Positions 6,543-51,873 of a DNA stretch of 64,000 bases are shown here, piece after piece. Below the pieces are notes generated by a model. That model had not been told where the DNA came from, did no database searches, and worked only from the letters and a program-made list of their open reading frames with translations. Origin of the DNA: Escherichia coli (GTDB lineage Bacteria; Pseudomonadota; Gammaproteobacteria; Enterobacterales; Enterobacteriaceae); the NCBI RefSeq assembly GCF_009931435.1, contig NZ_CP043414.1. One strand, written 5' to 3'. Numbering within the stretch: position 1 is the stretch's first letter; each line of letters opens with the position of its first letter. Made by a program: the position numbers and the translations under genes.

Positions 6543-6788
6543 ATGACCGATCTCTTTTCCAGCCCTGACCACACACTCGACGCACTTGGCCTGCGCTGCC
6601 CGGAACCAGTAATGATGGTGCGCAAAACTGTGCGCAATATGCAGCCAGGTGAAACGTTGCTGATTATTGCTGACGATCCGGCGACGACACGCGATATTCC
6701 TGGGTTTTGTACCTTTATGGAACACGAACTGGTTGCGAAAGAGACCGATGGACTGCCTTATCGTTATTTGATTCGCAAATCGGGGTAA
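6543..6788 (+). CDS. tusA: sulfur carrier protein TusA
   Basis: 81-aa ORF with the conserved [11 protein letters not shown] motif; matches TusA. Confidence 0.95.
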
Positions 6789-6843
6789 GGTGGATCAGGC
6801 TAGCGGACCGATCGCGCTCAATTTTGCGGCTTGAAACCGGTTT

Positions 6844-7079
6844 GTAGGACGGATAAGGCGTTCAAGCTGCATCTGGCGATACGGTGCACAATGCCTGATG
6901 CGACGCTGTCGCGTCTTATCATGCCTACGAGTTCTATGCTCTGTGTAGGACGGATAAGGCGTTCACGCCGCATCCGGCGGTTGTGTGTGGATGCCTGATG
7001 CGACGCTGTCGCGTCTTATCATGCCTACGAGTTCAATGCCCTGTGTAGGCCAGATAAGGCGTTTACGCCGCATCCGGCA
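6844..7079. repeat. BIME cluster of five REP units in alternating orientation
   Basis: GTAGGACGGATAAGGCGTTCA..GCATC.GGCG and its inverted partner GCCTGATGCGACGCTGTCGCGTCTTATCATGCCTAC recur with ~100-bp periodicity (units start near 6844, 6893, 6946, 6993, 7045). Confidence 0.8.
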
Positions 7080-7102
7080 CGCAAACGTAATGGAATGCAC
7101 AA

Positions 7103-7411
7103 ATGGATTATTTAATTCCAGTTTGTCTGGCATTGCTGGGATTGCTCGCGATCTTCACCCCCAATTGGCTGATCCCTGTTTTTATCGTCGTGGGGGGATG
7201 GCTGGGGGTACTTGCCTGGGGTTGGCTCTGGCTAATGATTTTTTTACCTTTACTTAACGGTGTCGGGCTTGCTTATGCCCTGTGGTTGATGTTCAAAAGG
7301 CCATCCATAGCATCCCGCCTGGTTGCTGCATGCTGTGTTATCTCCGTCATTCTGATGTTAGCGCTTTATTATGCTTTCCTGACTATGCCGCCGTTCCCGC
7401 CTCAGCACTAA
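7103..7411 (+). CDS. hypothetical small membrane protein (102 aa, about 3 predicted TM segments), unnamed
   Basis: ORF with strongly hydrophobic, Trp/Leu-rich, CTG-biased coding; weak GGAA upstream of ATG; followed by a 10-bp-stem hairpin; no match recalled to a named K-12 gene. Confidence 0.45.
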   Translation: MDYLIPVCLALLGLLAIFTPNWLIPVFIVVGGWLGVLAWGWLWLMIFLPLLNGVGLAYALWLMFKRPSIASRLVAACCVISVILMLALYYAFLTMPPFPPQH

Positions 7412-7436
7412 GCCTGATAGCCAGAGGCTATCAGGC
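7412..7436. terminator. bidirectional hairpin between the 102-aa ORF and convergent zntA
   Basis: GCCTGATAGC-CAGAG-GCTATCAGGC, perfect 10-bp stem, flanked by T-rich sequence on the + strand and lying 8 bp downstream of the zntA stop. Confidence 0.6.
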
Positions 7437-7443
7437 AACACTT

Positions 7444-9642
7444 TTACTTCCTGCGCAACAATCTTAACGCATTCGCTGTTACCAGCACCGTCGCACCCGT
7501 ATCTGCCAGCACCGCCAGCCATAGTCCGGTCATCCCTAACAGCGTTGTGACGAGGAAGATCCCTTTCAGCCCCAGCGCAATGGTGATGTTCTGGCGGATG
7601 TTGGCGTGAGTGGCGCGTGCCAGTTCAATCATCTGCGCCAGGCCGCGCAGGTGGTTATGGGTTAATGCTGCGTCGGCGGTTTCCAGCGCCACATCTGTGC
7701 CACTGCCCATTGCAATTCCTATGGCGGCAGCTTTCATGGCGGGCGCGTCGTTAATACCGTCACCGACCATCGCCAGAGGCGCATGTTGATTCAGCTCGGT
7801 CACCGCTTTGACTTTATCTTCTGGTAATAGGCCCGCTTTAAATTCCAGCCCCAGTTCACCGGCGATTGCCGCCGCTGCGCGTGGATTATCGCCAGTGAGG
7901 ATCACCCCTTTGACACCCAGGGCGCTCAGTTCGCTGATGGCAGTTGCGGCGTCGGCGCGCAGGGTATCCTGCAATGCAATTACGCCAAGCACGTCATCGT
8001 TACGCACCACCAGTACTACCGTTTGCCCGGCGCTTTCCAGTTCGTTAATTAAACCAGCAAATGCAACAGCCGGATGTTTTCCGGCAGCGCATATCAACAC
8101 GCGCTCGCCGTTAATCAGTGCTTCAATACCAGACCCGACCAGCGCCCGCTGTGATTCGGCGGCGGGAATGGCGAGTTCAGCAACCTGTGCTTCGCGTACG
8201 ATGGCTTGCGCCAATGGATGCGTCGCGCCTTGCTCGACCGCCGCTGCCAGTGTCAGCAGTTCAGATTCACTAATACCCGTTGCCGGATGAATCGCGGTAA
8301 CGCGCGGTTTACCGACGGTCAGCGTACCGGTTTTATCAAACGCCACCTGGGTAACACGACCTAGTTGTTCCAGCGCCGCACCGCCTTTAATCAACGCCCC
8401 ACGACGCGCTGCGGCTGCCAGCCCGGAGGTGATCGCCGCAGGTGTTGAGATCACCAGCGCACACGGGCAGCCAATCAGCAGCAGCGTCAGCCCTTTATAA
8501 ATCCACTCCTGCCAGCTTGCGGCAAACAGCAGCGGCGGCACCAGCGTCACCAGCAGGGCGACGGCCATAATCGCTGGCGTGTAAATACGGCTGAAACGGT
8601 CGATAAACCGCTCAATCGGTGCGCGGCGCTCTTCAGCTTCTTCGATCAGTTTCAGAATCCGGTCAATGGCGCTGGCACCCGGTTCTGACAGCACTTCCAG
8701 CGTTACCAGACGGTCTACGCTGGTGGCGCCTGCAGGAACTTTATCACCCGTCGCGCGTTCCACCGGAATGGATTCGCCGGTCAGGGCGCTTTCATCAAAA
8801 CTGGCAAAGGGCGAGAGCAGTTTACCGTCGGCAGGTAAACGCCCACCTGCCGCAACTTCGATAACATCGCCCGGACGCAGGCTGTTAATTGCTACCTCTT
8901 CACGCTTGCCATTACGCAGGCGCGTGGCGGTTTCCGGTTTCAGCGCCATTAACGCGCTGACCCCTTGACGCGCGCGGCTGGCGGCCCAGCCTTCCAGTCG
9001 TTCACCAATCAAAAACAGCAGCAACACCATCGCAGCTTCAGCCGTTGCGCCAATAAACAGCGCACCAATAGCGGCTACGCTCATTAAGGTTTCAATAGCG
9101 AAGTAGCTGCCGGATTTGATCAGCCGTAATGCCTGACGAGCAATCGGGTACAGCCCAACCAGCGTGGTCGCGATAAACGCCAGTTGACCGAACGGATGAT
9201 TAAACTGCTCCAGACCCCAGCTGATTGCCATCAACACGATTAGCGTAATCAGCGGCAGATTCTCTTTCAGGCGTGATTCTTGTTGTTCGTCGGCGGACTG
9301 TTCATCGCGCAGGGAATAGCCCGCTTTTTGCACCGCAGATTCAACTTGTGCACGGATGTCATTGTCGGCATCAACCACCAGTTTTTCGGTGGCGAACAGC
9401 ACCTGCACCTGATTCACGCCTGCAAGCTGGCGCACGGCATTTTCTACCTTGCGCGCGCAGGCGGCGCAGTCCATGCCGCTGACTTTCCAGCTATAGCGGG
9501 TGCCGGAGACGTTTTCAGAGAGCGTTGGCGTGCTGGAACATGCGCCGTCGCAGCAACAGTCGTTGACGTTCTGTACCGTGGTTAGCGGTTTGAACGCAGA
9601 AAATTGAGGGGCTTTCTTGCCGTGATTGTCAGGAGTCGACAT
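7444..9642 (-). CDS. zntA: Zn/Cd/Pb-exporting P-type ATPase ZntA
   Basis: 732-aa ORF with N-terminal metal-binding GMDCAAC, CPC motif and DKTGTLT phosphorylation motif. Confidence 0.95.
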   Translation of the reverse strand: MSTPDNHGKKAPQFSAFKPLTTVQNVNDCCCDGACSSTPTLSENVSGTRYSWKVSGMDCAACARKVENAVRQLAGVNQVQVLFATEKLVVDADNDIRAQVESAVQKAGYSLRDEQSADEQQESRLKENLPLITLIVLMAISWGLEQFNHPFGQLAFIATTLVGLYPIARQALRLIKSGSYFAIETLMSVAAIGALFIGATAEAAMVLLLFLIGERLEGWAASRARQGVSALMALKPETATRLRNGKREEVAINSLRPGDVIEVAAGGRLPADGKLLSPFASFDESALTGESIPVERATGDKVPAGATSVDRLVTLEVLSEPGASAIDRILKLIEEAEERRAPIERFIDRFSRIYTPAIMAVALLVTLVPPLLFAASWQEWIYKGLTLLLIGCPCALVISTPAAITSGLAAAARRGALIKGGAALEQLGRVTQVAFDKTGTLTVGKPRVTAIHPATGISESELLTLAAAVEQGATHPLAQAIVREAQVAELAIPAAESQRALVGSGIEALINGERVLICAAGKHPAVAFAGLINELESAGQTVVLVVRNDDVLGVIALQDTLRADAATAISELSALGVKGVILTGDNPRAAAAIAGELGLEFKAGLLPEDKVKAVTELNQHAPLAMVGDGINDAPAMKAAAIGIAMGSGTDVALETADAALTHNHLRGLAQMIELARATHANIRQNITIALGLKGIFLVTTLLGMTGLWLAVLADTGATVLVTANALRLLRRK

Positions 9643-9677
9643 GGCATCCTCCGGTTAAGTTTTTTCTCATTAACCGA

Positions 9678-9709
9678 AGGATACACTCTGGAGTCGACTC
9701 CAGAGTCAA
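9678..9709 (-). promoter_or_regulatory. zntA promoter with ZntR (MerR-type) operator
   Basis: On the minus strand: -35 TTGACT, 20-bp spacer containing the perfect dyad ACTCTGGAGTC-GACTCCAGAGT (9685-9706), -10 TATCCT; the long spacer is the MerR-family hallmark. Confidence 0.85.
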
Positions 9710-9715
9710 GTTTTA

Positions 9716-10342
9716 TCAGAGATACAGCGAGCGGACGATGAGGAAATGTCCGGCAAAATAACAAGCGGCGGCAATCGCGTTATCCGCACGGAAGCGTCGG
9801 CGATAGTGGCTACCCAGCCAGACAAAGTTACTGATAAACAGCAACGAAGCGCCGACAAATGCAGAAAGTGCCGGAGCGGTTGGACGGAAGAACCACAGTT
9901 CACCTGCCAGCCATACCATCACCAGCGTCATGCCGATAAACGTGCAGATAGGCCAACGATACTCTTCCAGACGCGTCCAGATAATCGCCAGTAACAGCGC
10001 GCCCAGAACCAGCAATACCAGTGGCAGAGGCCAGAAGAAAGAGAGCGTCATCTGACTGGCGAAATAGATGGTGTAAAGCAGGTGCGAGAGGAAAAACGCG
10101 CCGATGGCGTACATCAGACGTTGACGTGGCAACAGGGTTAGCGCATCGCCCAGCAGTGAGGCGCACAGCCCCGCCAGCACCAGATAGCTAATGGCGTCGA
10201 ACATCGGCGCTTGCCATGCCAGTAACAGCAGGAGAAGAAGGGTTAACGGTTTAAACACCCAGCGTTGCCAGGTTGGCCCACGATACGATGCATCCACAGA
10301 TAGCCATGCGGAAAGACAGACTGCGATAAACGACCAAAGCAT
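9716..10342 (-). CDS. yhhN: YhhN-family membrane protein (lysoplasmalogenase-like)
   Basis: 208-aa polytopic membrane ORF matching YhhN; immediately upstream of zntA. Confidence 0.85.
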
Positions 10343-10482
10343 CTTAGTTCCTTGAATTCGTTATTTTTTCGTAAGCGGAATGCCTACGGTCTTGCTTCCA
10401 GTTTAGTGGCGAGGGTGGACGGATGACAACACCATAACTGGCAGGGTATGCTTATTTCCGCATTTTCCGATGAGGGATAAAG

Positions 10483-10842
10483 ATGAGCAAACCACCTCTT
10501 TTCTTTATTGTTATCATTGGCTTAATTATCGTCGCCGCATCGTTTCGTTTTATGCAACAGCGACGGGAAAAAGCTGATAATGATATAGCGCCACTCCAGC
10601 AAAAGTTGGTGGTGGTGAGCAATAAGCGGGAAAAACCGATTAACGATCGCCGTTCGCGCCAGCAGGAAGTAACTCCGGCAGGCACCAGCATGCGCTATGA
10701 GGCGAGCTTCAAACCGCAAAGCGGAGGAATGGAACAGACGTTTCGCCTCGACGCCCAGCAGTACCATGCCCTGACAGTGGGCGATAAAGGTACGCTGAGC
10801 TATAAAGGAACGCGCTTTGTCAGCTTTGTCAGCAAACAATAA
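10483..10842 (+). CDS. yhhM: YhhM (DUF2500) protein
   Basis: 119-aa ORF with N-terminal TM anchor; matches YhhM. Confidence 0.85.
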   Translation: MSKPPLFFIVIIGLIIVAASFRFMQQRREKADNDIAPLQQKLVVVSNKREKPINDRRSRQQEVTPAGTSMRYEASFKPQSGGMEQTFRLDAQQYHALTVGDKGTLSYKGTRFVSFVSKQ

Positions 10843-10844
10843 GG

Positions 10845-11114
10845 TTATTTTTTAACGTTAAATTTCTTCTGCCAGACCAGCAGTTCAAACACGCCGAAAA
10901 GGAAAATGCGCACCTTTTCGGCGGTGGTCATCTGCGGGCCATCTTTCGGTAAAGTGGATTTCAACAGCGCCAGCTGCATACCATGCATCAGCACGGTAAA
11001 AATCAGCGCCACGTTAACGAAAATATTCAGCGGACGCGGGAAGGGATGCACCAGGTTGAGGATTAAAAATCCCCAAACACAGAGCATTAACACACGACCA
11101 ATATTAATCAGCAT
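10845..11114 (-). CDS. yhhL: small membrane protein YhhL (DUF1145)
   Basis: Track ORF extends to 11237; internal ATG at 11114 gives the 89-aa MLINIGRVLMLCVWGF... protein; start overlaps rsmD 3' end by 11 nt. Confidence 0.75.
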   Translation of the reverse strand: MLINIGRVLMLCVWGFLILNLVHPFPRPLNIFVNVALIFTVLMHGMQLALLKSTLPKDGPQMTTAEKVRIFLFGVFELLVWQKKFNVKK

Positions 11115-11700
11115 CACTTTCTCCTTGTGCTTCGCGTTGATACAGGCGGTAAGCCACCTGACCTGCCACTTTTTCCCGATGTAATGACCAGTTCGCCGGA
11201 ACGGTGGGGAGCCCGTTTTCGACTTCGCTTTCGACATAAATCAGGGCTTCGTCAGCCAGCCAGCCGTTATCTTCCAGTAAATTTATCGTCTCTTCTAACA
11301 AGCCACGGCGGAACGGTGGATCGACAAAAACGATATTATGCGGTGTGCCTTTTTGCGCCAGGAATGACATCGCGTTGCTGTTCACCACGCGTGCATTACC
11401 TGCTTTTAGTGTCGCCAGATTCTTAATTAACTGTTGAGAAACCGCGCGATCCATCTCAATCAACGTGGCCCCCGCAGCGTAGCGCGATAACGCTTCCAGC
11501 CCCAGCGCGCCGCTCCCGGCGAAGCAATCCAGACATTGGGCGTCAACAATGACCGGAGCCAGCCAGTTAAACAACGTTTCGCGTACGCGGTCGGTGGTGG
11601 GGCGCAGACCTGGGCTATCAGGAACCGGGAGTTTACGGCCTCGCCACTGCCCGCCAATAATGCGGATTTGGCCGCTGCCGGAATGATTCGGTTTTTTCAT
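11104..11700 (-). CDS. rsmD: 16S rRNA m2G966 methyltransferase RsmD
   Basis: 198-aa ORF with SAM-MTase motifs (LDCFAGSGALGLEALSR, DPPF); divergent from ftsY. Confidence 0.9.
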   Translation of the reverse strand: MKKPNHSGSGQIRIIGGQWRGRKLPVPDSPGLRPTTDRVRETLFNWLAPVIVDAQCLDCFAGSGALGLEALSRYAAGATLIEMDRAVSQQLIKNLATLKAGNARVVNSNAMSFLAQKGTPHNIVFVDPPFRRGLLEETINLLEDNGWLADEALIYVESEVENGLPTVPANWSLHREKVAGQVAYRLYQREAQGESDAD

Positions 11701-11849
11701 GATAAATTGCTCAATCCGCCAGATAACACATACTTGCAGGCGGTGATGTGAATTAAGTTAAGTGATAGACTATTTCATCATTTTTTTAGCTGCTATGTAC
11801 ATAGCGTTAACGCTGTGCCATGAAGCAACAGCGAGGAGTGTAGTCGCAA

Positions 11850-13388
11850 ATGGCGAAAGAAAAAAAACGTGGCTTTTTTTCCTGGCTGGGCTTTGGTCAA
11901 AAAGAGCAGACCCCGGAAAAAGAGACAGAAGTCCAGAACGAACAACCGGTTGTAGAAGAAATCGTTCCGGCGCAAGAGCCTGCGAAGGCTTCTGAACAAG
12001 CCGTTGAAGAGCAGCCGCAGGCGCATACTGAAGCCGAGGCGGAAACTTTTGCTGCCGACGTTGTGGAAGTTACTGAACAGGTTGCTGAAAGTGAAAAAGC
12101 GCAGCCTGAAGCTGTTGCTGAACCGGAAGTTATTACTGAGCCGGAAACGATAGTTGAAGAAACGCCAGCGTCAGTCATTGAACCTGAAGTTACGCCAGAG
12201 CCTGTGGCTATCGAGCGTGAAGAGCTGCCGTTGCCGGAAGACGTCAAAGCCGAAGAGGTTTCGCCAGAAGAGTGGCAGGCCGAAGCGGAAACCGTAGAGA
12301 TTGTCGAAGCGGCGGAAGAAGAAGCGGCTAAAGACGAAATCACCGACGAAGAGCTGGAAGCACAGGCGCTGGCTGCCGAAGCGGCAGAAGAGGCGGTGAT
12401 GGTGGTTCCTCCGGCAGAAGAAGAGCAGCCGGTGGAAGAAATCGCTCAGGAGCAGGAAAAACCGACCAAAGAAGGTTTCTTCGCGCGCCTGAAACGCAGC
12501 CTGTTAAAAACCAAAGAAAACCTCGGTTCCGGATTTATCAGCCTGTTCCGCGGTAAAAAAATCGACGATGATCTGTTTGAAGAATTGGAAGAGCAATTGC
12601 TCATCGCCGATGTGGGCGTGGAAACCACGCGTAAAATTATCACCAATCTAACAGAAGGTGCGACCCGCAAGCAGCTTCGTGATGCCGAGGCGCTCTATGG
12701 CCTATTGAAAGAAGAGATGGGTGAGATTCTGGCGAAAGTCGATGAACCGCTGAACGTTGAAGGTAAAACGCCGTTCGTGATCCTGATGGTGGGCGTCAAC
12801 GGTGTGGGTAAAACCACGACGATCGGTAAGCTGGCGCGTCAGTTTGAGCAGCAGGGTAAATCAGTGATGCTGGCGGCGGGCGATACTTTCCGTGCAGCAG
12901 CGGTTGAACAGCTTCAGGTCTGGGGTCAGCGTAATAATATTCCGGTGATTGCCCAGCATACCGGTGCGGATTCCGCTTCTGTTATCTTCGACGCCATTCA
13001 GGCCGCTAAAGCGCGTAACATCGACGTTCTGATTGCCGATACCGCCGGACGCCTGCAGAACAAATCGCACTTGATGGAAGAGTTGAAGAAAATCGTCCGC
13101 GTGATGAAGAAACTCGACGTTGAAGCTCCGCATGAAGTTATGCTGACTATCGACGCCAGTACCGGGCAGAATGCAGTAAGCCAGGCCAAACTGTTCCACG
13201 AAGCCGTTGGCTTAACCGGCATCACGCTAACGAAACTGGACGGCACGGCGAAAGGCGGGGTAATTTTCTCGGTGGCTGACCAGTTTGGTATCCCTATCCG
13301 CTACATTGGTGTCGGCGAACGTATTGAGGATTTGCGTCCGTTTAAGGCGGACGACTTTATAGAGGCACTTTTTGCCCGAGAGGATTAA
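11850..13388 (+). CDS. ftsY: signal recognition particle receptor FtsY
   Basis: 512-aa ORF: acidic low-complexity A domain followed by NG GTPase domain (GVNGVGKTTTIGKLA, DTAGR, TKLDG). Confidence 0.95.
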   Translation: MAKEKKRGFFSWLGFGQKEQTPEKETEVQNEQPVVEEIVPAQEPAKASEQAVEEQPQAHTEAEAETFAADVVEVTEQVAESEKAQPEAVAEPEVITEPETIVEETPASVIEPEVTPEPVAIEREELPLPEDVKAEEVSPEEWQAEAETVEIVEAAEEEAAKDEITDEELEAQALAAEAAEEAVMVVPPAEEEQPVEEIAQEQEKPTKEGFFARLKRSLLKTKENLGSGFISLFRGKKIDDDLFEELEEQLLIADVGVETTRKIITNLTEGATRKQLRDAEALYGLLKEEMGEILAKVDEPLNVEGKTPFVILMVGVNGVGKTTTIGKLARQFEQQGKSVMLAAGDTFRAAAVEQLQVWGQRNNIPVIAQHTGADSASVIFDAIQAAKARNIDVLIADTAGRLQNKSHLMEELKKIVRVMKKLDVEAPHEVMLTIDASTGQNAVSQAKLFHEAVGLTGITLTKLDGTAKGGVIFSVADQFGIPIRYIGVGERIEDLRPFKADDFIEALFARED

Positions 13389-13390
13389 CA

Positions 13391-14059
13391 ATGATTCGCT
13401 TTGAACATGTCAGCAAGGCTTATCTCGGTGGGAGACAGGCGCTGCAGGGCGTTACGTTCCATATGCAGCCGGGTGAGATGGCGTTTCTGACCGGTCATTC
13501 CGGCGCAGGGAAAAGTACCCTCCTGAAGCTGATCTGTGGGATTGAGCGGCCCAGCGCCGGGAAAATCTGGTTTAGCGGCCATGACATCACGCGTCTGAAA
13601 AACCGTGAAGTTCCGTTTCTGCGCCGCCAGATTGGCATGATTTTCCAGGATCACCATCTACTGATGGACCGTACTGTCTACGATAACGTGGCGATCCCGC
13701 TGATTATCGCCGGTGCCAGCGGTGACGATATTCGTCGTCGTGTATCGGCGGCGCTGGATAAAGTCGGGCTACTGGACAAAGCGAAGAACTTCCCTATTCA
13801 GCTTTCCGGCGGTGAACAACAGCGTGTTGGCATTGCCCGCGCGGTGGTGAACAAGCCCGCGGTACTGCTGGCGGATGAACCGACCGGTAACCTTGACGAC
13901 GCGTTGTCAGAAGGAATTCTACGTCTGTTTGAAGAATTTAACCGCGTTGGGGTAACCGTATTGATGGCAACGCACGACATCAACCTGATTTCGCGGCGTT
14001 CCTATCGCATGCTCACCCTGAGCGATGGTCACTTGCATGGAGGCGTGGGCCATGAATAA
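13391..14059 (+). CDS. ftsE: cell division ABC ATPase FtsE
   Basis: 222-aa ORF with Walker [18 protein letters not shown] signature and Walker B. Confidence 0.95.
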
Positions 14060-15110
14060 GCGCGATGCAATCAATCATATCCGGCAGTTTGGCGGGCGTC
14101 TGGATCGCTTCCGTAAATCGGTCGGCGGCTCTGGCGACGGCGGTCGTAACGCGCCAAAACGGGCGAAATCCTCGCCAAAACCGGTAAATCGCAAAACCAA
14201 CGTTTTCAACGAACAGGTGCGCTATGCCTTCCACGGCGCATTGCAGGATCTGAAAAGTAAACCGTTCGCCACGTTTTTAACGGTGATGGTTATCGCCATC
14301 TCCCTGACGCTGCCCAGCGTCTGTTATATGGTGTACAAAAACGTTAACCAGGCGGCGACGCAGTATTATCCGTCACCGCAAATCACTGTTTATCTGCAAA
14401 AAACGCTGGATGATGACGCCGCTGCGGGTGTGGTGGCACAGTTGCAGGCCGAGCAAGGCGTAGAGAAAGTAAACTATCTTTCTCGTGAAGACGCACTGGG
14501 CGAGTTCCGTAACTGGTCTGGTTTTGGTGGTGCGCTGGATATGCTGGAGGAAAACCCGCTTCCGGCAGTGGCGGTGGTAATCCCGAAACTCGATTTTCAG
14601 GGGACCGAGTCACTGAATACCTTGCGCGATCGTATCACCCAGATCAACGGCATTGACGAAGTGCGAATGGATGACAGCTGGTTTGCCCGTCTGGCGGCGT
14701 TGACCGGGCTGGTCGGGCGCGTTTCGGCAATGATCGGCGTATTGATGGTGGCGGCAGTGTTCCTCGTCATCGGTAACAGTGTGCGTCTGAGCATCTTTGC
14801 TCGCCGTGACTCCATTAACGTACAGAAACTGATTGGTGCGACAGATGGTTTCATCCTGCGCCCGTTCCTGTACGGTGGCGCATTGCTGGGATTTTCTGGC
14901 GCATTGTTGTCATTAATTTTGTCAGAGATTCTGGTACTGCGTTTGTCTTCGGCGGTTGCGGAAGTGGCACAGGTTTTCGGAACGAGGTTTGATATCAATG
15001 GCTTATCTTTCGATGAATGTCTGCTTTTGCTGCTGGTGTGTTCGATGATTGGCTGGGTGGCAGCCTGGCTTGCCACGGTACAACATTTACGCCACTTTAC
15101 GCCTGAATAA
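14052..15110 (+). CDS. ftsX: cell division permease-like protein FtsX
   Basis: ATG at 14052 ([13 protein letters not shown]...) overlaps ftsE 3' end by 8 nt; 352 aa. Confidence 0.9.
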
Positions 15111-15234
15111 TAAAAGCGTGTTATACTCTTTCCCTGCAATGGGTTCCGTAGCAGGGAAAGAGACCCCGTTGTCTCTTCCCGGTATTTCATCTCTATGTCA
15201 CATTTTGTGCGTAATTTATTCACAGCGTTGCATT

Positions 15235-15261
15235 GAACTTGTGGATAAAATCACGGTCTGA
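15235..15261 (+). promoter_or_regulatory. rpoH sigma-E-type promoter (P3-like) with embedded DnaA box
   Basis: GAACTT-16 nt-TCTGA matches the sigma-E consensus; TGTGGATAA (DnaA box) sits in the spacer. Confidence 0.65.
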
Positions 15262-15298
15262 TAAAACAGTGAATGATAACCTCGTTGCTCTTAAGCTC

Positions 15299-15313
15299 TG
15301 GCACAGTTGTTGC
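15299..15313 (+). promoter_or_regulatory. sigma-54 consensus promoter element upstream of rpoH
   Basis: TGGCAC-N5-TTGC with GG and GC exactly 12 bp apart, about 40 bp upstream of the rpoH ATG. Confidence 0.6.
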
Positions 15314-15354
15314 TACCACTGAAGCGCCAGAAGATATCGATTGAGAGGATTTGG

Positions 15355-16209
15355 ATGACTGACAAAATGCAAAGTTTAGCTTTAGCCCCAGTTGGCAACC
15401 TGGATTCCTACATCCGGGCAGCTAACGCGTGGCCGATGTTGTCGGCTGACGAGGAGCGGGCGCTGGCTGAAAAGCTGCATTACCATGGCGATCTGGAAGC
15501 AGCAAAAACGCTGATCCTGTCTCACCTGCGGTTTGTTGTTCATATTGCTCGTAATTATGCGGGCTATGGCCTGCCACAGGCGGATTTGATTCAGGAAGGT
15601 AACATCGGCCTGATGAAAGCAGTGCGCCGTTTTAACCCGGAAGTGGGTGTGCGCCTGGTCTCCTTCGCCGTTCACTGGATCAAAGCAGAGATCCACGAAT
15701 ACGTTCTGCGCAACTGGCGTATCGTCAAAGTTGCGACCACCAAAGCGCAGCGCAAACTGTTCTTCAACCTGCGTAAAACCAAGCAGCGTCTGGGCTGGTT
15801 TAATCAGGATGAAGTCGAAATGGTGGCCCGTGAACTGGGCGTAACCAGCAAAGACGTACGTGAGATGGAATCGCGTATGGCGGCACAGGACATGACCTTT
15901 GACCTGTCTTCCGATGACGATTCCGACAGCCAGCCGATGGCTCCGGTGCTTTATCTGCAGGATAAATCGTCCAACTTTGCCGACGGCATTGAAGATGATA
16001 ACTGGGAAGAGCAGGCGGCAAACCGTCTGACCGACGCGATGCAGGGCCTGGATGAGCGTAGCCAGGACATTATCCGCGCACGCTGGTTGGACGAAGACAA
16101 CAAGTCCACGTTGCAGGAACTGGCTGACCGTTACGGTGTTTCCGCTGAGCGTGTGCGCCAGCTGGAAAAGAACGCGATGAAAAAACTTCGCGCTGCTATT
16201 GAAGCGTAA
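15355..16209 (+). CDS. rpoH: heat-shock sigma factor sigma-32 (RpoH)
   Basis: ATG at 15355 gives the 284-aa [12 protein letters not shown]... protein; sigma-70-family regions 2 and 4. Confidence 0.95.
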
Positions 16210-16230
16210 TTTCCACTATTAATCAGAGAA

Positions 16231-16262
16231 CCCTGGATGAGAGTCCGGGGTTTTTGTTTTTT
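16231..16262 (+). terminator. rho-independent terminator of rpoH
   Basis: 7-bp stem CCCTGGA/TCCGGGG with 6-nt loop, followed by TTTTTGTTTTTT. Confidence 0.75.
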
Positions 16263-16480
16263 GGACCTCTGCAATAATCAATTACCCCCTCCGACAAAAC
16301 GCCAATCCCCACGCAGATTGTTAATAAACTGTCAAAATAGCTATTCCAATATCATAAAAATCGGGTATGTTTTAGCAGAGTATGCTGCTAAAGCACGGGT
16401 AGTCATGCATAAAACGAAATAAAGTGCTGAACAACAACATCACAACACACGTAATAACCAGATGAATGGGGATTCTCAGG

Positions 16481-17584
16481 ATGAATATAAAGGGTAAAGC
16501 GTTACTGGCAGGATGTATCGCGCTGGCATTCAGCAATATGGCTCTGGCAGAAGATATTAAAGTCGCGGTTGTGGGCGCAATGTCCGGTCCGGTGGCCCAG
16601 TACGGCGACCAGGAGTTTACTGGCGCAGAGCAGGCAGTTGCGGATATTAACGCTAAAGGCGGTATCAAAGGCAACAAACTGCAAATCGTAAAATATGACG
16701 ATGCCTGTGACCCGAAACAGGCGGTCGCGGTGGCGAACAAAGTCGTTAACGACGGCATTAAATATGTCATTGGCCACCTCTGTTCTTCATCAACGCAGCC
16801 AGCGTCTGACATCTACGAAGACGAAGGCATTTTAATGATCACCCCAGCAGCAACCGCACCAGAGCTGACCGCCCGTGGCTATCAGCTGATCCTGCGCACC
16901 ACCGGCCTGGATTCCGACCAGGGGCCGACGGCGGCGAAATATATTCTTGAGAAAGTGAAACCGCAGCGTATTGCTATCGTTCACGACAAACAGCAGTACG
17001 GCGAAGGTCTGGCGCGTGCGGTGCAGGACGGCCTGAAGAAAGGCAATGCTAACGTGGTGTTCTTTGACGGCATCACCGCCGGGGAAAAAGATTTCTCAAC
17101 GCTGGTGGCGCGTTTGAAGAAAGAGAATATCGACTTCGTTTACTACGGTGGTTACCACCCGGAAATGGGGCAGATCCTGCGTCAGGCACGCGCGGCAGGG
17201 CTGAAAACTCAGTTTATGGGGCCGGAAGGCGTGGCTAACGTCTCGCTGTCTAACATTGCGGGCGAGTCAGCTGAAGGGTTGCTGGTAACCAAGCCGAAGA
17301 ACTACGATCAGGTTCCGGCGAACAAACCAATTGTTGACGCGATCAAAGCGAAAAAACAGGACCCAAGCGGCGCGTTCGTCTGGACCACCTACGCCGCGCT
17401 GCAATCTTTGCAGGCGGGCCTGAATCAGTCTGACGATCCGGCTGAAATCGCCAAATACCTGAAAGCGAACTCCGTGGATACCGTGATGGGGCCGCTGACC
17501 TGGGATGAGAAAGGTGATCTGAAAGGCTTTGAGTTCGGCGTATTTGACTGGCACGCCAACGGCACGGCGACCGATGCGAAGTAA
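16481..17584 (+). CDS. livJ: Leu/Ile/Val-binding periplasmic protein LivJ
   Basis: ATG at 16481 ([23 protein letters not shown] signal peptide); 367 aa; paralog of LivK. Confidence 0.9.
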
Positions 17585-17644
17585 TCATTAATCGGCAACT
17601 TTGGGTTGCCGCCAAATTGCTAATATCGAGTACGCATGCTTCAT

Positions 17645-17743
<99 letters not shown>

Positions 17744-17784
17744 AATTTCTCGTTGGTCATCACTTTTGAAATCAAACTTGACGA

Positions 17785-18168
17785 TTAACGCTTCTCCCAG
17801 CCGCCCTGTTGTGCCGTAAACCCCAGCGCCTGCATAAACGCCGTCATCACGCCGCGATCTTCCACGCCTGCATCCGCCATCCACCAGCCTGAAACGCCAG
17901 GATTGTTACGCAAAACCTCTTCCAGCAGATATTGCCCCACACCGCGACGTCGGGTGACTTCCCGCACGTGCAGGGAATCCAGTGCCCCCTCGGTGCCGTT
18001 TAAGGTTACCCGCACGGCCGCGAGCAGGCGCTCGTTAAAACGCGCGGCGTAGATGCGGTGGTTATCGTCAACCTGTAAAGAGGAAGGGGAGTACTCCGGC
18101 CAGATCTTTTGCAGGTCAATCCGGTCCTGGTCGCTAAAGTGTTCTAAACGAATGATGGTCAGCTTCAT
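17785..18168 (-). CDS. panM: PanD maturation factor PanM (PanZ/YhhK), GNAT fold
   Basis: 127-aa ORF matching PanM; lies between livJ and livK. Confidence 0.85.
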   Translation of the reverse strand: MKLTIIRLEHFSDQDRIDLQKIWPEYSPSSLQVDDNHRIYAARFNERLLAAVRVTLNGTEGALDSLHVREVTRRRGVGQYLLEEVLRNNPGVSGWWMADAGVEDRGVMTAFMQALGFTAQQGGWEKR

Positions 18169-18591
18169 GGGAAACCCGTGTAAATCACAAAAGTGGAACC
18201 AGTGTAGCGAAATAATTTAATCGGAGGCTTTCTCTTTTTTATTTCTTTTGGCAGGTGATTAATTTTTTAACAGCAATAATTACAAATTAAAAACATTAGA
18301 GAATGAAAAATGTCCAGCATAATCCCCTGAATGGTAGTGAATTATTCCGCCCTTTGTACCGTTATTTTATGCTGACAACGGCGCTTTTTTCTGTTTATCT
18401 ATCAATAAATTCAGAATATTATCTGTTCTTAATCGACTGAAAAATAGGGATTTTAATCGCTATTATCACAAAATACTGCGCTAAACCCTTAATCAGACAG
18501 GCAAAAACAGTGCAGTATAAAAAAAGTACAGTCTGATTTGTTAACACATAAAAACAAAGCAACACAACATCACGAATGGGGATTTTTGACT

Positions 18592-19701
18592 ATGAAACGG
18601 AATGCGAAAACTATCATCGCAGGGATGATTGCACTGACAATTTCACACACCGCTATGGCCGACGATATTAAAGTCGCCGTTGTCGGCGCGATGTCCGGTC
18701 CGATTGCCCAGTGGGGCGATATGGAATTTAACGGCGCGCGTCAGGCGATTAAAGACATTAATGCCAAAGGGGGAATTAAAGGCGATAAGCTGGTGGGCGT
18801 GGAATATGACGACGCCTGCGACCCGAAACAAGCCGTTGCGGTCGCCAACAAAATCGTTAACGACGGCATTAAATACGTTATTGGTCATCTGTGTTCTTCT
18901 TCTACCCAACCTGCATCAGATATCTACGAAGATGAAGGTATTTTGATGATCTCGCCGGGGGCGACCAACCCGGAGCTGACTCAACGCGGTTATCAACACA
19001 TCATGCGGACTGCCGGGCTGGACTCTTCCCAGGGGCCAACAGCGGCAAAATACATTCTTGATACGGTGAAGCCCCAGCGCATCGCCATCATTCACGACAA
19101 ACAACAGTATGGCGAAGGGCTGGCGCGTTCGGTGCAGGACGGATTGAAAGCAGCCAATGCCAACGTCGTCTTCTTCGACGGTATTACCGCTGGTGAGAAA
19201 GATTTCTCCGCGCTGATCGCCCGCCTGAAAAAAGAAAACATCGACTTCGTTTACTACGGCGGTTACTACCCGGAAATGGGGCAGATGCTGCGCCAGGCCC
19301 GTTCCGTTGGCCTGAAAACTCAGTTTATGGGGCCGGAAGGGGTGGGTAATGCGTCGCTGTCGAACATTGCTGGTGATGCCGCCGAAGGTATGTTGGTCAC
19401 TATGCCAAAACGCTATGACCAGGACCCGGCAAACAAAGGCATCGTTGATGCGCTGAAAGCAGACAAGAAAGATCCGTCCGGGCCATATGTCTGGATCACC
19501 TACGCGGCGGTGCAATCTCTGGCGACTGCCCTTGAGCGTACCGGCAGCGATGAGCCGCTGGCGCTGGTGAAAGATTTAAAAGCTAACGGTGCAAACACCG
19601 TGATTGGGCCGCTGAACTGGGATGAAAAAGGCGATCTTAAGGGATTTGATTTTGGTGTCTTCCAGTGGCACGCCGACGGTTCATCGACGGCAGCCAAGTG
19701 A
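18592..19701 (+). CDS. livK: leucine-specific binding protein LivK
   Basis: ATG at 18592 ([23 protein letters not shown] signal peptide); 369 aa; first gene of livKHMGF. Confidence 0.9.
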
Positions 19702-31073: not shown

Positions 31074-31080
31074 TATCTTA

Positions 31081-31108
31081 AGCCCTCTCCCGGTAGGTGA
31101 GGGCTTTT
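31081..31108. terminator. hairpin terminator in the 49-bp ggt/yhhY convergent gap
   Basis: AGCCCTC-11 nt loop-GAGGGCT followed by TTTTAG; directly after the ggt stop. Confidence 0.65.
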
Positions 31109-31122
31109 AGATTACAAATTCT

Positions 31123-31611
31123 CTATTTCACCCGCGCCATATAATACGCATCGACATATTCGCCATTACGAAAAGCGTAATTTTTGCCGGTACCTTCTAT
31201 GAGAAATCCGAATTTTTTATAGACTGCGATTGCTGGGGCGTTATCCGCAAACACCGTCAACTCAATACGATCTATCCGTAACCAGTTGTCGCACATTTCA
31301 ATCAATTCGCGGATCAGGGCGCTGGCGATGCCACGGTTGTGCCAGCGGGAGTCAACACAGATACCAAAAGTTGCAACATGACTGCGACGTGGGCCTTGAT
31401 AAGCTTCCACGAAAAGATGACCCACCACGATACTATCAATGCAGGCAACCAGTTGTTTAAATCCCTGGCGATCTTTCAATCTTTCTGGCCACCAGCCTTC
31501 CGAAGGATGAGGTAGTTGTAGCGTGTTGTAATACACCTCCGGTTGGGCGTGAATCTGCCTGATGGCCTCGTAATCCCGTGTTTCTGCGTGGCGTATTACT
31601 ATCTCACTCAT
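31123..31611 (-). CDS. yhhY: GNAT-family N-acetyltransferase YhhY
   Basis: Track ORF extends to 31689; ATG at 31611 gives the 162-aa MSEIVIRHAETRDYEAIRQIH... protein. Confidence 0.85.
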   Translation of the reverse strand: MSEIVIRHAETRDYEAIRQIHAQPEVYYNTLQLPHPSEGWWPERLKDRQGFKQLVACIDSIVVGHLFVEAYQGPRRSHVATFGICVDSRWHNRGIASALIRELIEMCDNWLRIDRIELTVFADNAPAIAVYKKFGFLIEGTGKNYAFRNGEYVDAYYMARVK

Positions 31612-31732: not shown

Positions 31733-31822
31733 GCGATCAGGAAGACCCTCGCGGAGAACCTGAAAGCACGACATTGCTCACATTGCTTCCAGTATTACTT
31801 AGCCAGCCGGGTGCTGGCTTTT
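31733..31822 (+). ncRNA. ryhB: iron-responsive small RNA RyhB
   Basis: 90 nt GCGATCAGGAAGACCCTCGCGGAGAACCTGAAAGCACGACATTGCTCACATTGCTTCCAGTATTACTTAGCCAGCCGGGTGCTGGCTTTT matches recalled RyhB; ends in a GCCAGC/GCTGGC hairpin plus T9; sits in the yhhY-yhhX intergenic region. Confidence 0.9.
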
Positions 31823-31945
31823 TTTTTTGACCTTTCGTTCTCAATTTATCCACGGGAAGTGCTTGTGTTTGTTATGCGCACTCCTGTAGGAACCGCGTCC
31901 GCTTTGCGCTAAGGTGTAAATAACCACCTTAAAAAGGACGAAATC

Positions 31946-48735: not shown

Positions 48736-50253
48736 ATGGAAAGAATAATGCAAAACAGAAAATGGATTTTGACCTCGCTGATAATGACTTTTTTCGGCAT
48801 CCCCATACTGGCGCAATTTTTGGCAGCGGTTATTGCCATGCTGGGGGCCGGGCTTGCCGCTATTCTTGAGGCTTGCAATTTACTCTTTACGCCAACAATT
48901 TATCTTCTACTCAACATCTTTATGCTGACGCTGGGGGCGATAATCCTATTTTTCTCTGGTCGCGTGTGGGCCGGTGATAGCGCACCAGAAAACAGAGAAA
49001 TAGCCGTCTGGCGGCAATGCTTTTTTCTTTTACCTGCACTGTTAACTCTGGTTGGCTGGATAATCACGCTACATCTGGCAGATTATCAACTTCGCCAGCT
49101 GGGAGCGGGTTGGTTGGCAAATCTTATGCTCCCCTGGCTGGGCGTATTGTTAGTCTCATTAGTCGGTGGTGAGTACTGGTGGATAGTCATTATTCCCGTT
49201 GGCGCGCATATCAGTTTTTCGCTGGGGTACGGCTGGCCAACCAGACATCCTTTAACCGGCACGTACGGGTTACGTTGCCGTAATTCCCTCCTGTTTATCC
49301 TTCTCATGCTGGTTTTTGTCGCTGGTTATCAGGCTTATTTATATAAACAGCTTAATCCTGGTGTTGGTGTACGCGAAAATATTGATACCTGGGCCTGGCG
49401 ACCCGATAAACTCAATAATCAACTGACGCCACTGCGTGGTAAACCGCAAATTCAGTTTACACAAAACTGGCCGCGACTCGATGGTGCTACGGCGGCGTAC
49501 CCAATTTATGCTTCTGCCTTTTATGCGTTGAGCGTTATACCGGAAGATTTCCACACCTGGGAATATCTGGAGAACTCTCGTACCCCCGATGCATATAACA
49601 GGATTGTTAAAGGTGATGCCGATATTATTTTTGTGGCGCAACCTTCCGGTGGGCAGAAAAAACGTGCAGAGGAATCGGGCGTCACTTTGAACTACACTCC
49701 TTTCGCCCGTGAAGCATTCGTTTTCATCGTCAATGCGGATAACCCGGTTAATTCCCTGACTGACCAACAGGTGCGTGACATCTTCAGTGGCGTAATTACC
49801 AACTGGCGTACTGTTGGCGGTAACGATCAGGAGATCCAGACCTGGCAACGCCCGGAAGACTCTGGCAGCCAGACAGTGATGCAATCGCAGGTCATGAAAA
49901 ATGTCCGCATGATCTCGCCGCAGGAAACCGAAGTGGCAAGCATGATGGAGGGAATGATTAAAGTTGTTGCCGAATACCGTAATACAAACAACTCAATAGG
50001 CTACACCTTCCGCTATTACGCAACACAAATGAACGCCGATAAAAATATAAAACTGCTAGCTATTAACGGTATTGCACCGACTGCGGAAAATATTCGTAAC
50101 GGCAAATATCCGTATATCGTCGATGCCTTTATGGTAACGCGGGAAAATACTACGTCAGAAACACAAAAACTGGTCGAATGGTTTTTAATGCCGCAGGGGC
50201 AGAGTCTGGTGGAAGATGTGGGCTATGTGCCGCTGTATCCAACAATGAAATAA
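48736..50253 (+). CDS. fusion protein: N-terminal polytopic membrane module (about 200 aa, 5-6 TM) plus C-terminal PstS-family (phosphate-binding-protein-like) domain
   Basis: 505-aa ORF (alternative ATG at 48748 has better SD spacing); hydrophobic N-terminus; C-terminal half is about 60% identical by eye to the next gene and carries PstS-like motifs (DIFSGVITNWRTVGG; RPEDSGSQTVM; IGYTFRYY). Confidence 0.7.
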   Translation: MERIMQNRKWILTSLIMTFFGIPILAQFLAAVIAMLGAGLAAILEACNLLFTPTIYLLLNIFMLTLGAIILFFSGRVWAGDSAPENREIAVWRQCFFLLPALLTLVGWIITLHLADYQLRQLGAGWLANLMLPWLGVLLVSLVGGEYWWIVIIPVGAHISFSLGYGWPTRHPLTGTYGLRCRNSLLFILLMLVFVAGYQAYLYKQLNPGVGVRENIDTWAWRPDKLNNQLTPLRGKPQIQFTQNWPRLDGATAAYPIYASAFYALSVIPEDFHTWEYLENSRTPDAYNRIVKGDADIIFVAQPSGGQKKRAEESGVTLNYTPFAREAFVFIVNADNPVNSLTDQQVRDIFSGVITNWRTVGGNDQEIQTWQRPEDSGSQTVMQSQVMKNVRMISPQETEVASMMEGMIKVVAEYRNTNNSIGYTFRYYATQMNADKNIKLLAINGIAPTAENIRNGKYPYIVDAFMVTRENTTSETQKLVEWFLMPQGQSLVEDVGYVPLYPTMK

Positions 50254-50278
50254 CGCTCGAGAGAAAGGAATCAGCGCA

Positions 50279-51271
50279 ATGAATAAATTCACCGGTGTTT
50301 TACTATTAGGTACGGCGTTACTGGCGGGATGTGTCGACCGGGAAGGGTACTATAACAGCGTCAGGGAAGAAGAGAGTCATGGACTGACGTCTCTGCGGGG
50401 GCAACCTGAATTACGTTACAGCGATGATTGGTCAAGATGGCCGAGAGTGTACGGCGCTACAGCCTTATACCCGCTGTATGCCTCCGCGTATTATGAATTA
50501 GTACCCGAGCCAAAAGATAAGGATCGAACCTCGCTGGCCTGGCAGGCGTATGGTTTGCAACAAACCCGAACAGCTGAAGCCTACGATAGTCTGATCAAGG
50601 GTACCGCGACGGTTATTTTTGTTGCACAACCGTCGGAAGGACAGAAAAAACGTGCAGAAGAAGCAGGCGTTAAACTGAAATATACCGCGTTTGCCCGCGA
50701 AGCCTTTGTCTTTATCGTTGATATCAAAAACCCGGTTAATTCACTTAGCGAACAGCAGGTCAAAGACATTTTTAGCGGTAAAGTGAGTCGCTGGAATAAA
50801 GTGGGCGGCGGTGACGAAAGTATAAAAGTCTGGCAGCGGCCAGAAGATTCTGGAAGCCAAACGGTTATGAAGGGACTGGTTATGCAAGATACTCCAATGC
50901 TGCCAGCCAAAAAATCCACTGTTATCGATCTTATGGGCGGTTTAATTACCGAAGTCGCCGACTACCAAAACACACCATCTTCCATTGGATACACCTTCCA
51001 CTATTACGTCACACGTATGAATGACAATATGCTCAAAATGCGCAAACAGATCAAACTGCTGGCTATAAATGGCGTTGCACCTACAGAGGAAAATATCCGT
51101 AACGGCACTTATCCGTACATAATTGATGCTTATATGGTGACGCACGAAAACCCTACGCTGGAAACGCAGAAATTCGTCGACTGGTTTTTAAGCCCGCAGG
51201 GACAGCAATTGGTAGAGGATGTGGGGTATGTGCCGATTCATGACGCATCATACGAATCATCAGTGCAATAA
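50279..51271 (+). CDS. PstS-family (phosphate-binding-protein-like) lipoprotein
   Basis: 330 aa; lipobox LLAGC after signal peptide; AAGGAA SD 8 nt upstream; motifs GATALYPLYASAY, DIFSGKVSRWNKVGG, RPEDSGSQTVM, IGYTFHYY align to E. coli PstS motifs (GAGATFPAPVYAKW, IYLGKIKKWDD, RRADGSGTSFVF, IGYVEYAY). Confidence 0.75.
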   Translation: MNKFTGVLLLGTALLAGCVDREGYYNSVREEESHGLTSLRGQPELRYSDDWSRWPRVYGATALYPLYASAYYELVPEPKDKDRTSLAWQAYGLQQTRTAEAYDSLIKGTATVIFVAQPSEGQKKRAEEAGVKLKYTAFAREAFVFIVDIKNPVNSLSEQQVKDIFSGKVSRWNKVGGGDESIKVWQRPEDSGSQTVMKGLVMQDTPMLPAKKSTVIDLMGGLITEVADYQNTPSSIGYTFHYYVTRMNDNMLKMRKQIKLLAINGVAPTEENIRNGTYPYIIDAYMVTHENPTLETQKFVDWFLSPQGQQLVEDVGYVPIHDASYESSVQ

Positions 51272-51873
51272 TGATGAATAAAATCAGACTTTATATTCCT
51301 CCGTTAATTCTTGGTTTTGTTATTGTGCCGTTGTTGGTGTGGCCGACGGTGGTTGCGCTGGCTGCTTCTGTTATCACGCTGAGTTTTCTGGGAGAGATAC
51401 TGTTCTCTATCCCGCTCATGATCAGGCATATTTCGCTTCTGCAATTACAACTATGGTTATCGGCTGAATATGCGCTTTTCTGCTGTGCAATGGTGGGCGT
51501 TGGTTGGCAATTTGCTCGTATAACTCAATCTGAATTGAAAAGCAGACTGCATTGTTGGCTGGTATTTGCACCAGTTTATTTCTGGTTGCTCCTGTGGAAT
51601 ATCATTTTCTATGTCGCGCCAGCGAATATTGCGTTGCTGGAGAATATGCGCAGTTTCTTTCTGACAGTTGTCTGGCTCCCACTAAATTTTTCACCATTTT
51701 GGTCCCAACCGTGGATTGACTTTGTCGGTCCAATAAGCGCACAGCTTGGTTTTGCGTTGGGATATTATTGCCAGTGGCGTAGCAAAAATAGAAGCCAGAT
51801 ACGGAAGTGGAGTGAGTGGGGAACGTGCCTGAGTTTTGTTACGTTGGGTATGATGGCGTGGGCTTTGCGGTAA
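51271..51873 (+). CDS. polytopic membrane protein, paralog of the N-terminal module of cluster gene 1
   Basis: 200 aa; ATG overlaps previous stop (TAATG); segment VGPISAQLGFALGYY resembles VGAHISFSLGYGW in gene 1. Confidence 0.65.
   Translation: MMNKIRLYIPPLILGFVIVPLLVWPTVVALAASVITLSFLGEILFSIPLMIRHISLLQLQLWLSAEYALFCCAMVGVGWQFARITQSELKSRLHCWLVFAPVYFWLLLWNIIFYVAPANIALLENMRSFFLTVVWLPLNFSPFWSQPWIDFVGPISAQLGFALGYYCQWRSKNRSQIRKWSEWGTCLSFVTLGMMAWALR

Follow-up and report, generated by a model that had tools for sequence, protein, structure and literature searches.

FtsY, the bacterial SRP receptor, is an essential membrane-targeting protein. The acidic A-domain that precedes its N and G domains is, according to the literature, "of variable size and sequence" (PMC2572998). 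In the Escherichia coli K-12 protein it is disordered by NMR, with a proposed role as a flexible tether; its most dynamic part runs from Ile38 to Ala140, and the central region comprising residues 38-161 showed no lipid binding and bound SecYEG transiently and non-specifically via charge (PMC5094494). [quoted passage not shown] A cross-link to SecY maps to FtsY residues 143-176, in a study that refers to the A-domain as "nonessential" (PMC4602035), and FtsY-NG+1, a variant in which Phe196 is all that remains of the A-domain, can replace FtsY in depleted cells, with in vitro targeting being only 26% less efficient (PMC2928010). Our literature search returned no experiment on the long form of the domain described here and nothing specific on natural length polymorphism of the FtsY A-domain.

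We analyzed a stretch of 64,000 nucleotides from an E. coli contig (NZ_CP043414.1), referred to as the window, in which the open reading frame of 512 codons plus stop at 11850..13388 on the plus strand is ftsY. The whole protein scored 385.9 bits against the TIGR00064 ftsY equivalog model, which has a cut-off of 260.7, and the Ffh and SRP54 models scored under their own cut-offs. Pfam placed PF02881 (SRP54_N) at residues 225-290 (56.1 bits) and PF00448 (SRP54 GTPase) at residues 308-508 (268.2 bits), that is, in N-then-G order. The gene lies in the synteny rsmD-ftsY-ftsE-ftsX-rpoH, an order annotated identically in K-12, 2020CK-00188 and MFDS1022581, and its DNA is 99.6% identical to the annotated E. 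coli ftsY of 2020CK-00188. A proteobacterial A-domain with both end motifs is present; residues 1-33 and 205-271 show no difference from K-12, and window Phe211 corresponds to K-12 Phe196 at the end of the A-domain. By all sequence criteria tested, the protein is a member of the FtsY family, and its gene is ordinary and intact. Based on the 99.3% identity of its NG domain to that of the characterized K-12 protein, it is predicted to dock SRP-ribosome complexes at SecYEG in a GTP-dependent manner. The gene and its antisense strand comprise the following features.

11850..12482 (+): A-domain coding region, residues 1-211, acidic and of low complexity, with Glu at 58 of the first 207 positions
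11850..11891 (+): N-terminal basic lipid-binding motif MAKEKKRGFFSWLG, residues 1-14, unchanged in every aligned sequence from Escherichia and other enterobacteria
11897..12343 (-): antisense open reading frame of 148 aa, in an open run of 182 codons (11897-12446)
~12112-12123 (+): 12-nt segment, approximately residues 89-92 (VAEP), which common E. coli alleles lack; its exact position could shift by a few nt
12124..12161 (+): stretch rich in substitutions that separates the first two indels, with ~9-10 of its 36-38 nt differing from K-12
12162-12191 (+): 30-nt segment, residues 105-114 (TPASVIEPEV), missing in common E. coli alleles
~12360-12365 (+): 3-nt indel at Gln172, EAQAL in the window and ET-AL in K-12, which splits the 498-aa from the 497-aa forms
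12477..12515 (+): amphipathic helix for membrane targeting, located where the A and N domains meet, residues 210-222 (K-12 195-207), columns invariant
12522..13373 (+): N (helical bundle) and G (GTPase) domains, protein 99-100% identical across Escherichia, zero indels

The annotated ftsY of K-12 strain BW25113 has 1494 nt encoding 497 aa, and its ATG is identical in position to that of the window gene. The original prediction had put the window protein at 512 aa, about 15 residues longer than a 497-aa K-12 protein, and both lengths are thereby confirmed. Protein and DNA alignments of the window with seven E. coli alleles resolved the 45-nt excess into three in-frame indels of 4, 10 and 1 codons. 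All of them fall inside the A-domain, as was anticipated when the extra length was placed in the low-complexity N-terminal domain, and from residue 205 to the C terminus the E. coli alleles align without gaps. The Gln172 codon is missing only from the 497-aa alleles of the K-12 type and is kept by the commoner 498-aa form. Between the first two indels, the density of substitutions is about that of the synonymous divergence of the gene from K-12 (dS 0.15-0.22), which is expected of weakly constrained codons. The long segment contributes 14 residues and four Glu, and the net charge of the A-domain is approximately -50 in the window versus -46 in K-12. To convert K-12 numbering to that of long alleles, 4 has to be added after residue 88, 14 after residue 100 and 15 after residue ~157.

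Alignment with FtsY of several E. coli strains, which had been suggested as a check, confirmed the length difference and revealed at least six length classes of ftsY in complete E. coli genomes (1539, 1521, 1497, 1494, 1488 and 1377 nt). The difference is thus a strain polymorphism, as had been supposed. The implied expectation that a reference FtsY would differ in length from the window protein holds for K-12 but not for RefSeq E. coli SMS-3-5, whose FtsY also has 512 aa. The 1521-nt allele represents a perfect 24-nt tandem duplication, the 1488-nt allele a 9-nt deletion and the 1377-nt allele (strain PSJ-07) a 120-nt deletion. In an evenly spaced sample of 30 out of 5,425 matches, 17 genes had 1497 nt and 10 had 1494 nt. 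Of 5,426 complete E. coli genomes, 49 (~0.9%) contain the long-type 131-nt segment of the window at ≥95% identity, and these are the same 49 that hold the top-ranked 1539-nt matches. Eighteen complete E. coli genomes carry the window allele itself at ≥99% identity, and 381 public contigs encode the exact protein under the name FtsY [Escherichia coli]; among the RefSeq complete E. coli genomes, none has an ftsY that is 100% identical in DNA to that of the window.

Length variation is considerably wider in the Enterobacteriaceae. Among 46 intact enterobacterial FtsY proteins, the A-domain, counted up to GFFARLK, comprises 154-272 aa, and its net charge ranges from -32 to -69 across the set. In contrast, the part from GFFARLK to the C terminus is exactly 304 aa long in 46 of the 47 complete proteins, the exception being a truncated ORF in one assembly, which implies that FtsY changes its length in the A-domain only. 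The set derives from a pattern scan of genome contigs, in which several loci (those of S. arizonae and C. youngae among them) ended too soon on the downstream side. The scan did not return the representatives of E. coli, E. fergusonii, E. marmotae or E. ruysiae; for these species, FtsY proteins were taken from the cluster formed by the window protein at 90% identity. Compared with this natural range of the A-domain, a difference of 14-15 residues is small.

The two longer segments are found in other lineages of the genus. E. whittamii (512 aa), SCPM-O-B-8794 (512 aa; a GTDB representative named E. coli) and E. sp. E1V33 (509 aa) carry both of them in homologous but diverged form, and both are likewise present in the 512-aa FtsY proteins of E. 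marmotae, E. ruysiae and E. sp. E10V10, which belong to the 90%-identity cluster. E. albertii (504 aa) and E. sp. MOD1-EC7003 (486 aa) have the first segment and, at the second site, a different deletion of 24 nt; the 12-nt segment is present in all Escherichia outgroups. With a DNA divergence from the window of 4-13% at the ftsY locus, these lineages can be regarded as independent witnesses. By parsimony over a small number of outgroup genomes, the long architecture is ancestral for Escherichia. The 497/498-aa form, which K-12 shares with ~99% of E. coli, is accordingly the derived one, and the seemingly extra residues are ones that K-12 has lost. An expansion in the window strain, as the original prediction had implied, is thus replaced by a contraction in the K-12-type lineage, given that other Escherichia species carry the long form. 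We dropped the long form of E. fergusonii as independent outgroup support because the whole ftsY region of this species is only ~1.5% from the window.

The sequences at the junctions suggest how the segments may have been lost. At the 12-nt site, E. whittamii contains the direct repeat GAAGC...(7 nt)...GAAGC, and removal of one repeat together with the spacer yields the exact K-12 junction. The 30-nt site shows the direct repeat ACGCCAG and an extended imperfect repeat, GAAGAAACGCCAG / GAAGTTACGCCAG (repeat search, D11). In the window and in SCPM-O-B-8794 this site reads GAAGAAACGCC...GAAGT(C/T)ACGCC, and removal of one copy plus the spacer again results in the exact K-12 junction. Three different deletions from different lineages overlap one spot of ~80 nt, which can thus be considered a local indel hotspot. 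According to our working model, the long form would have been converted to the 497/498-aa form by two in-frame deletions, one of 12 nt and one of 30 nt. Both are bounded by short direct repeats, a classic hallmark of replication slippage or short-homology deletion, which are the most likely mechanisms. The K-12-type alleles would have undergone one further deletion of 3 nt.

The A-domain had been portrayed as prone to repeat expansion or contraction. This description is correct insofar as all indels seen fall in this domain, but not insofar as it implies changes in the copy number of a tandem array. Tandem Repeats Finder (TRF) detected no array at the indel sites of the A-domain, its sole match being a 15-nt unit in 2.2 copies at 12306-12338 that is common to all alleles, and the indels of 12, 30 and 3 nt have unrelated sequences, so that window and K-12 do not differ by whole repeat units. 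Judged by its sequence, the window A-domain is not a tandem-repeat length-variable region but one shaped by single events between short direct repeats. We nevertheless weighed a recent tandem-repeat expansion in the low-complexity DNA of the window strain, a scenario that could draw on the many short imperfect direct repeats of the region, on a weak resemblance of the 30-nt segment to the following 30 nt (D11, 76% over 21 nt) and on the true 24-nt tandem duplication in the 1521-nt form. However, the two 30-nt units are only ~50% identical overall, the TRF result speaks against an array, and both segments have diverged homologues in six or more further species or lineages of Escherichia, which implies that they are far older than the window strain. 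A recent expansion is therefore very improbable. An artefact of annotation, start codon or assembly, for which we found no support, deserves even less credence and can practically be set aside: the start codon is that of K-12, the two proteins agree in their first 33 residues, all differences lie inside the gene and keep the frame, and the allele recurs in the 18 complete genomes and the exact protein on the 381 contigs mentioned above.

We compared the window with other genomes beyond the gene itself. It diverges from K-12 by 3.4-5.5% over all 64 kb, and over its first 24 kb even the best-matching complete E. coli genome does not exceed 98.4% identity. Distances determined by tile-wise BLAST revealed a block (zntA to livK) that begins near 7.85 kb and reaches at least 19.35 kb, in which window and E. 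fergusonii are 0.2-3.8% apart, amounting to ~1.5% overall over at least 11.5 kb. Left of ~7.4 kb (yhhQ, tusA), the two are 9-11% apart, and the breakpoint is abrupt, whereas E. albertii remains at ~10% on both sides of it. Inside the block E. fergusonii is ~3.7% from K-12, compared with 10-11% outside. This pattern indicates interspecies gene flow over a block that holds ftsY, ftsEX and rpoH; a literature search for introgression between E. coli and E. fergusonii returned nothing specific. Because E. fergusonii is unusually near K-12 in the block while E. albertii is constant, the data favor a transfer from a window-like E. coli lineage to E. fergusonii as the more probable direction. The alternative that the window DNA is itself E. 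fergusonii was rejected, as its exact UgpB, GlgB, GlgX, GlgA and GlgP proteins are named E. coli and its yhhQ/tusA are 9-11% from those of E. fergusonii. Window GlgA and GlgP are identical to the K-12 reference, and the accessory region between tusA and zntA matches E. coli MFDS1022581. As a minority lineage of E. coli can hardly be told from E. fergusonii in the block, ftsY is unsafe as a naive species marker or outgroup.

Selection on the A-domain differs from that on the rest of the protein. In interspecies comparisons, dN/dS was 0.12-0.23 for the A-domain versus 0.003-0.03 for the rest of the gene; purifying selection on the A-domain is about ten-fold weaker than on NG, yet the domain is not neutral. 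The site of the indels corresponds to K-12 residues ~89-100, in the middle of the most dynamic segment, and is remote from the N-terminal lipid motif, the transient helix 152-161, the SecY cross-link at 143-176 and the junction helix 195-207. The indels would persist because they fall in the central disordered acidic part, which presumably acts as a charge-driven SecYEG tether and is dispensable for viability. They leave the lipid-binding N terminus, the membrane-targeting helix and the NG GTPase core untouched. The long form extends the tether by 14-15 residues and ~4 acidic charges, which is expected to be neutral or nearly so. Since the indels lie in the most dynamic part of a domain published as nonessential, a large functional effect is unlikely; a small effect of A-domain length or charge may exist in view of a dN/dS of ~0.15-0.2.

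Taken together, we consider it highly probable that the window contains an ordinary ftsY with the ancestral long A-domain, that the 497/498-aa form arose by the 12-nt and 30-nt repeat-bounded deletions, and that the difference is nearly neutral. It is a tenable alternative, to which we assign slightly less than an even chance, that the long allele was acquired by homologous recombination with a divergent Escherichia lineage, its length being a passenger of the haplotype block. The NG part of the window gene falls outside the mainstream E. coli cluster, at 3.3-5.0% from its alleles, with nearly all differences synonymous, and the mainstream alleles differ among themselves by 0.9-2.6%. Recombination would also account for the block near E. 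fergusonii with its abrupt left edge and for the block pattern seen relative to K-12, with identical flanks at 11550-11849 and 13200-13650. In addition, the SMS-3-5 allele is a mosaic that matches the window type exactly at 12030-12209 but has a mainstream NG part, which implies that at least some E. coli long alleles have spread by recombination and not by vertical retention. On the other hand, the divergence from K-12 spans the whole 64 kb and not ftsY alone, and the closeness of E. fergusonii to K-12 in the block favors transfer from E. coli to E. fergusonii and not the reverse. Acquisition by recombination is compatible with the ancestral long form and its repeat-bounded deletions, as it concerns the arrival of the allele and not the nature of the indel; the long form in E. 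coli may accordingly reflect recombinational re-introduction instead of vertical retention.

An adaptive explanation, in which a longer and more acidic tether alters the affinity for SecYEG or the search radius of NG and both forms are kept by selection, appears improbable. The 14 residues and four Glu of the long segment and the A-domain dN/dS below 1, which points to some constraint, are in line with it. Against it, a protein without nearly the whole A-domain still complements (PMC2928010), a change of 7% is inside the natural tolerance given by the enterobacterial lengths and charges, and the long form is rare in E. coli (~1%), with no ecological pattern in the host and source fields. We likewise see little likelihood in a bolder version, namely that the spot is a recurrent deletion hotspot with functional long and short states (differing in reach and ~4 charges) that has been moved between Escherichia, including E. 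fergusonii, by recombination as a selectively relevant trait.

The antisense open reading frame had been called spurious, and permutation, Pfam and annotation agree with this assessment. Its frame shares wobble positions with ftsY, and stops can arise only at NNT-CAN or NN(T/C)-TAN; as the A-domain is without Tyr and has few Gln and His, such stop-making sites are scarce. Upon synonymous permutation of the A-domain, the antisense open run was 160 ± 27 codons, and 27% of permutations reached at least 182 codons. A Pfam scan of the antisense ORF found no family, the ORF is unannotated in the RefSeq relatives K-12, 2020CK-00188 and MFDS1022581, and the length of the frame shifts with every ftsY indel allele. 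We judge it to be a non-coding by-product of composition that lacks the features of an overlapping gene.

How does the window protein compare with known systems? The exact protein has been deposited and is correctly annotated, and the variability and dispensability of the A-domain are published. It matters little in itself, as it concerns natural length variation in a variable, disordered and nonessential domain. Two corrections arise, in that K-12 has the contracted form and the indels are repeat-bounded deletions, not array expansions. The natural alleles, which span 458-512 aa within E. coli and 486-576 aa across the family, provide a ready tether-length series for tests of the tether model.

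With FtsY of K-12 (WP_001040654.1), the window protein shares the gene, the start, the operon context rsmD / ftsY-ftsE-ftsX-rpoH, the N-terminal motif and the junction helix, and the NG domains are separated by two nonsynonymous and 42 synonymous codon differences. It differs from K-12 FtsY by its 15 additional residues in three central A-domain indels, by ~4 more acidic charges and by an NG region that is 5% diverged in DNA. FtsY of SMS-3-5 (WP_001040624.1) matches the window in its 512 aa, in indel architecture and in the DNA of the variable segment, with the NG part being 3.5% away, while FtsY of 2020CK-00188 (WP_270097640.1), one of the 18 genomes with the window allele at ≥99% identity, equals it in length, indels and variable-segment DNA as well as in 99.6% of the overall DNA. 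The 512-aa FtsY of E. fergusonii ATCC 35469 (CAQ90914.1) has a variable segment 100% identical to that of the window, with 14 mismatches over ~1,500 nt and no gaps; because the surrounding 11.5 kb or more are also ~1.5% diverged, we attribute this likeness to gene flow and not to independent conservation. More generally, the domain resembles the class of disordered acidic linkers, which are of low complexity and rich in Glu, Ala, Val and Pro, tolerate in-frame indels and have conserved end motifs as in the window, and it differs from tandem-repeat proteins in that its indels represent single events between short direct repeats.

The window and E. fergusonii (compared loci L068/L069) diverge by only 0.2-3.8% over approximately 7,400-19,388, while leftward of approximately 7.4 kb, in yhhQ and tusA, their divergence is 9-11%. 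The right end of this block lies beyond the compared stretch, so that the extent to 19,388 is a minimum. The block comprises the following genes:

approximately 7,400-19,388, low-divergence block: zntA, yhhN, yhhM, yhhL, rsmD, ftsY, ftsE, ftsX, rpoH, livJ, panM and livK

K-12 and E. fergusonii are likewise unusually close inside the block (approximately 3.7%, versus 10-11% outside), and E. albertii shows a divergence of approximately 10% both inside and to the left of it. Based on the divergence step at approximately 7.4 kb, the closeness of E. fergusonii to K-12 within the block and the constant value for E. albertii, the sequence comparison points to interspecies recombination as the origin of this block with its essential genes. 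The transfer probably proceeded from E. coli to E. fergusonii.

Across the full window (1-64000), identity to K-12 is 94.5-96.6%; the first 24 kb are 98.4% identical to the best complete E. coli genome. The window's exact protein matches carry the E. coli name, and GlgA and GlgP are the same as in the K-12 reference. The source of the window is an E. coli lineage that is either divergent or strongly mosaic.

Other natural ftsY alleles were found among the compared loci. E. coli PSJ-07 (L006, NZ_AP027619.1, 501-1877) carries a 458-aa allele with a 120-nt in-frame deletion, which spans the equivalent of K-12 FtsY residues ~127-166. In K-12 numbering, landmarks of the A-domain are a transient helix at 152-161 and a SecY cross-link region at 143-176 (PMC5094494, PMC4602035); the deletion removes the former and part of the latter. 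How much the central A-domain matters could be tested directly with this naturally occurring allele. In the 506-aa allele of E. coli 1190 (L003, 501-2021), also present in at least 10 further genomes (H80-H90, among the listed ftsY matches), the A-domain hotspot that holds the window's indels has 24 nt perfectly duplicated in tandem (EVVAQPEA/EVVAQPEL). This allele is a true repeat expansion, whereas the 512-aa allele of the window is not. In Leclercia adecarboxylata NCTC13032 (L064, LR590464.1), the ftsY frame ends after 338 aa, unlike all other complete enterobacterial FtsY compared, in which the part comprising the membrane-targeting helix and GTPase core is 304 aa long; the short frame is probably due to a frameshift or an assembly error in LR590464.1.

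For yhhL (10845-11237, minus strand), the longest open reading frame encodes 130 aa, while relatives annotate only an 89-aa product whose first residues are the internal MLINIGRV. The additional 5' part of the longer frame runs into rsmD and probably remains untranslated.

Between tusA and zntA (6780-7448), the window has approximately 670 nt where K-12 has approximately 115 nt; between yhhY and ggt, a K-12 segment of approximately 3.4 kb is missing at 31074-31123; and between glgP and glpD, approximately 2.8 kb (48970-51813) are absent from K-12, a segment that takes in a PstS-family gene. Features in or near these intervals are:

6948-7025, match to naRNA4, a REP-derived nucleoid-associated RNA, inside the tusA-zntA stretch
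31762-31826, RyhB sRNA, near the yhhY-ggt site
K-12 NZ_CP069133.1 3574986-3578440, segment missing in the window: tssD (Hcp-family), yrhA, IS1A, yrhD and yrhB
48736-50253, plus strand, intact 505-aa PstS-family gene, exact match to WP_105288271.1

E. coli MFDS1022581 matches the tusA-zntA stretch except for a gap of approximately 100 nt near 6853-7002, and its annotation places a hypothetical protein within the interval, whereas E. fergusonii has a different gene there (164 aa). Of the PstS-family gene, which is intact in the window, K-12 retains a 5' remnant alone, annotated as the pseudogene yzgL.
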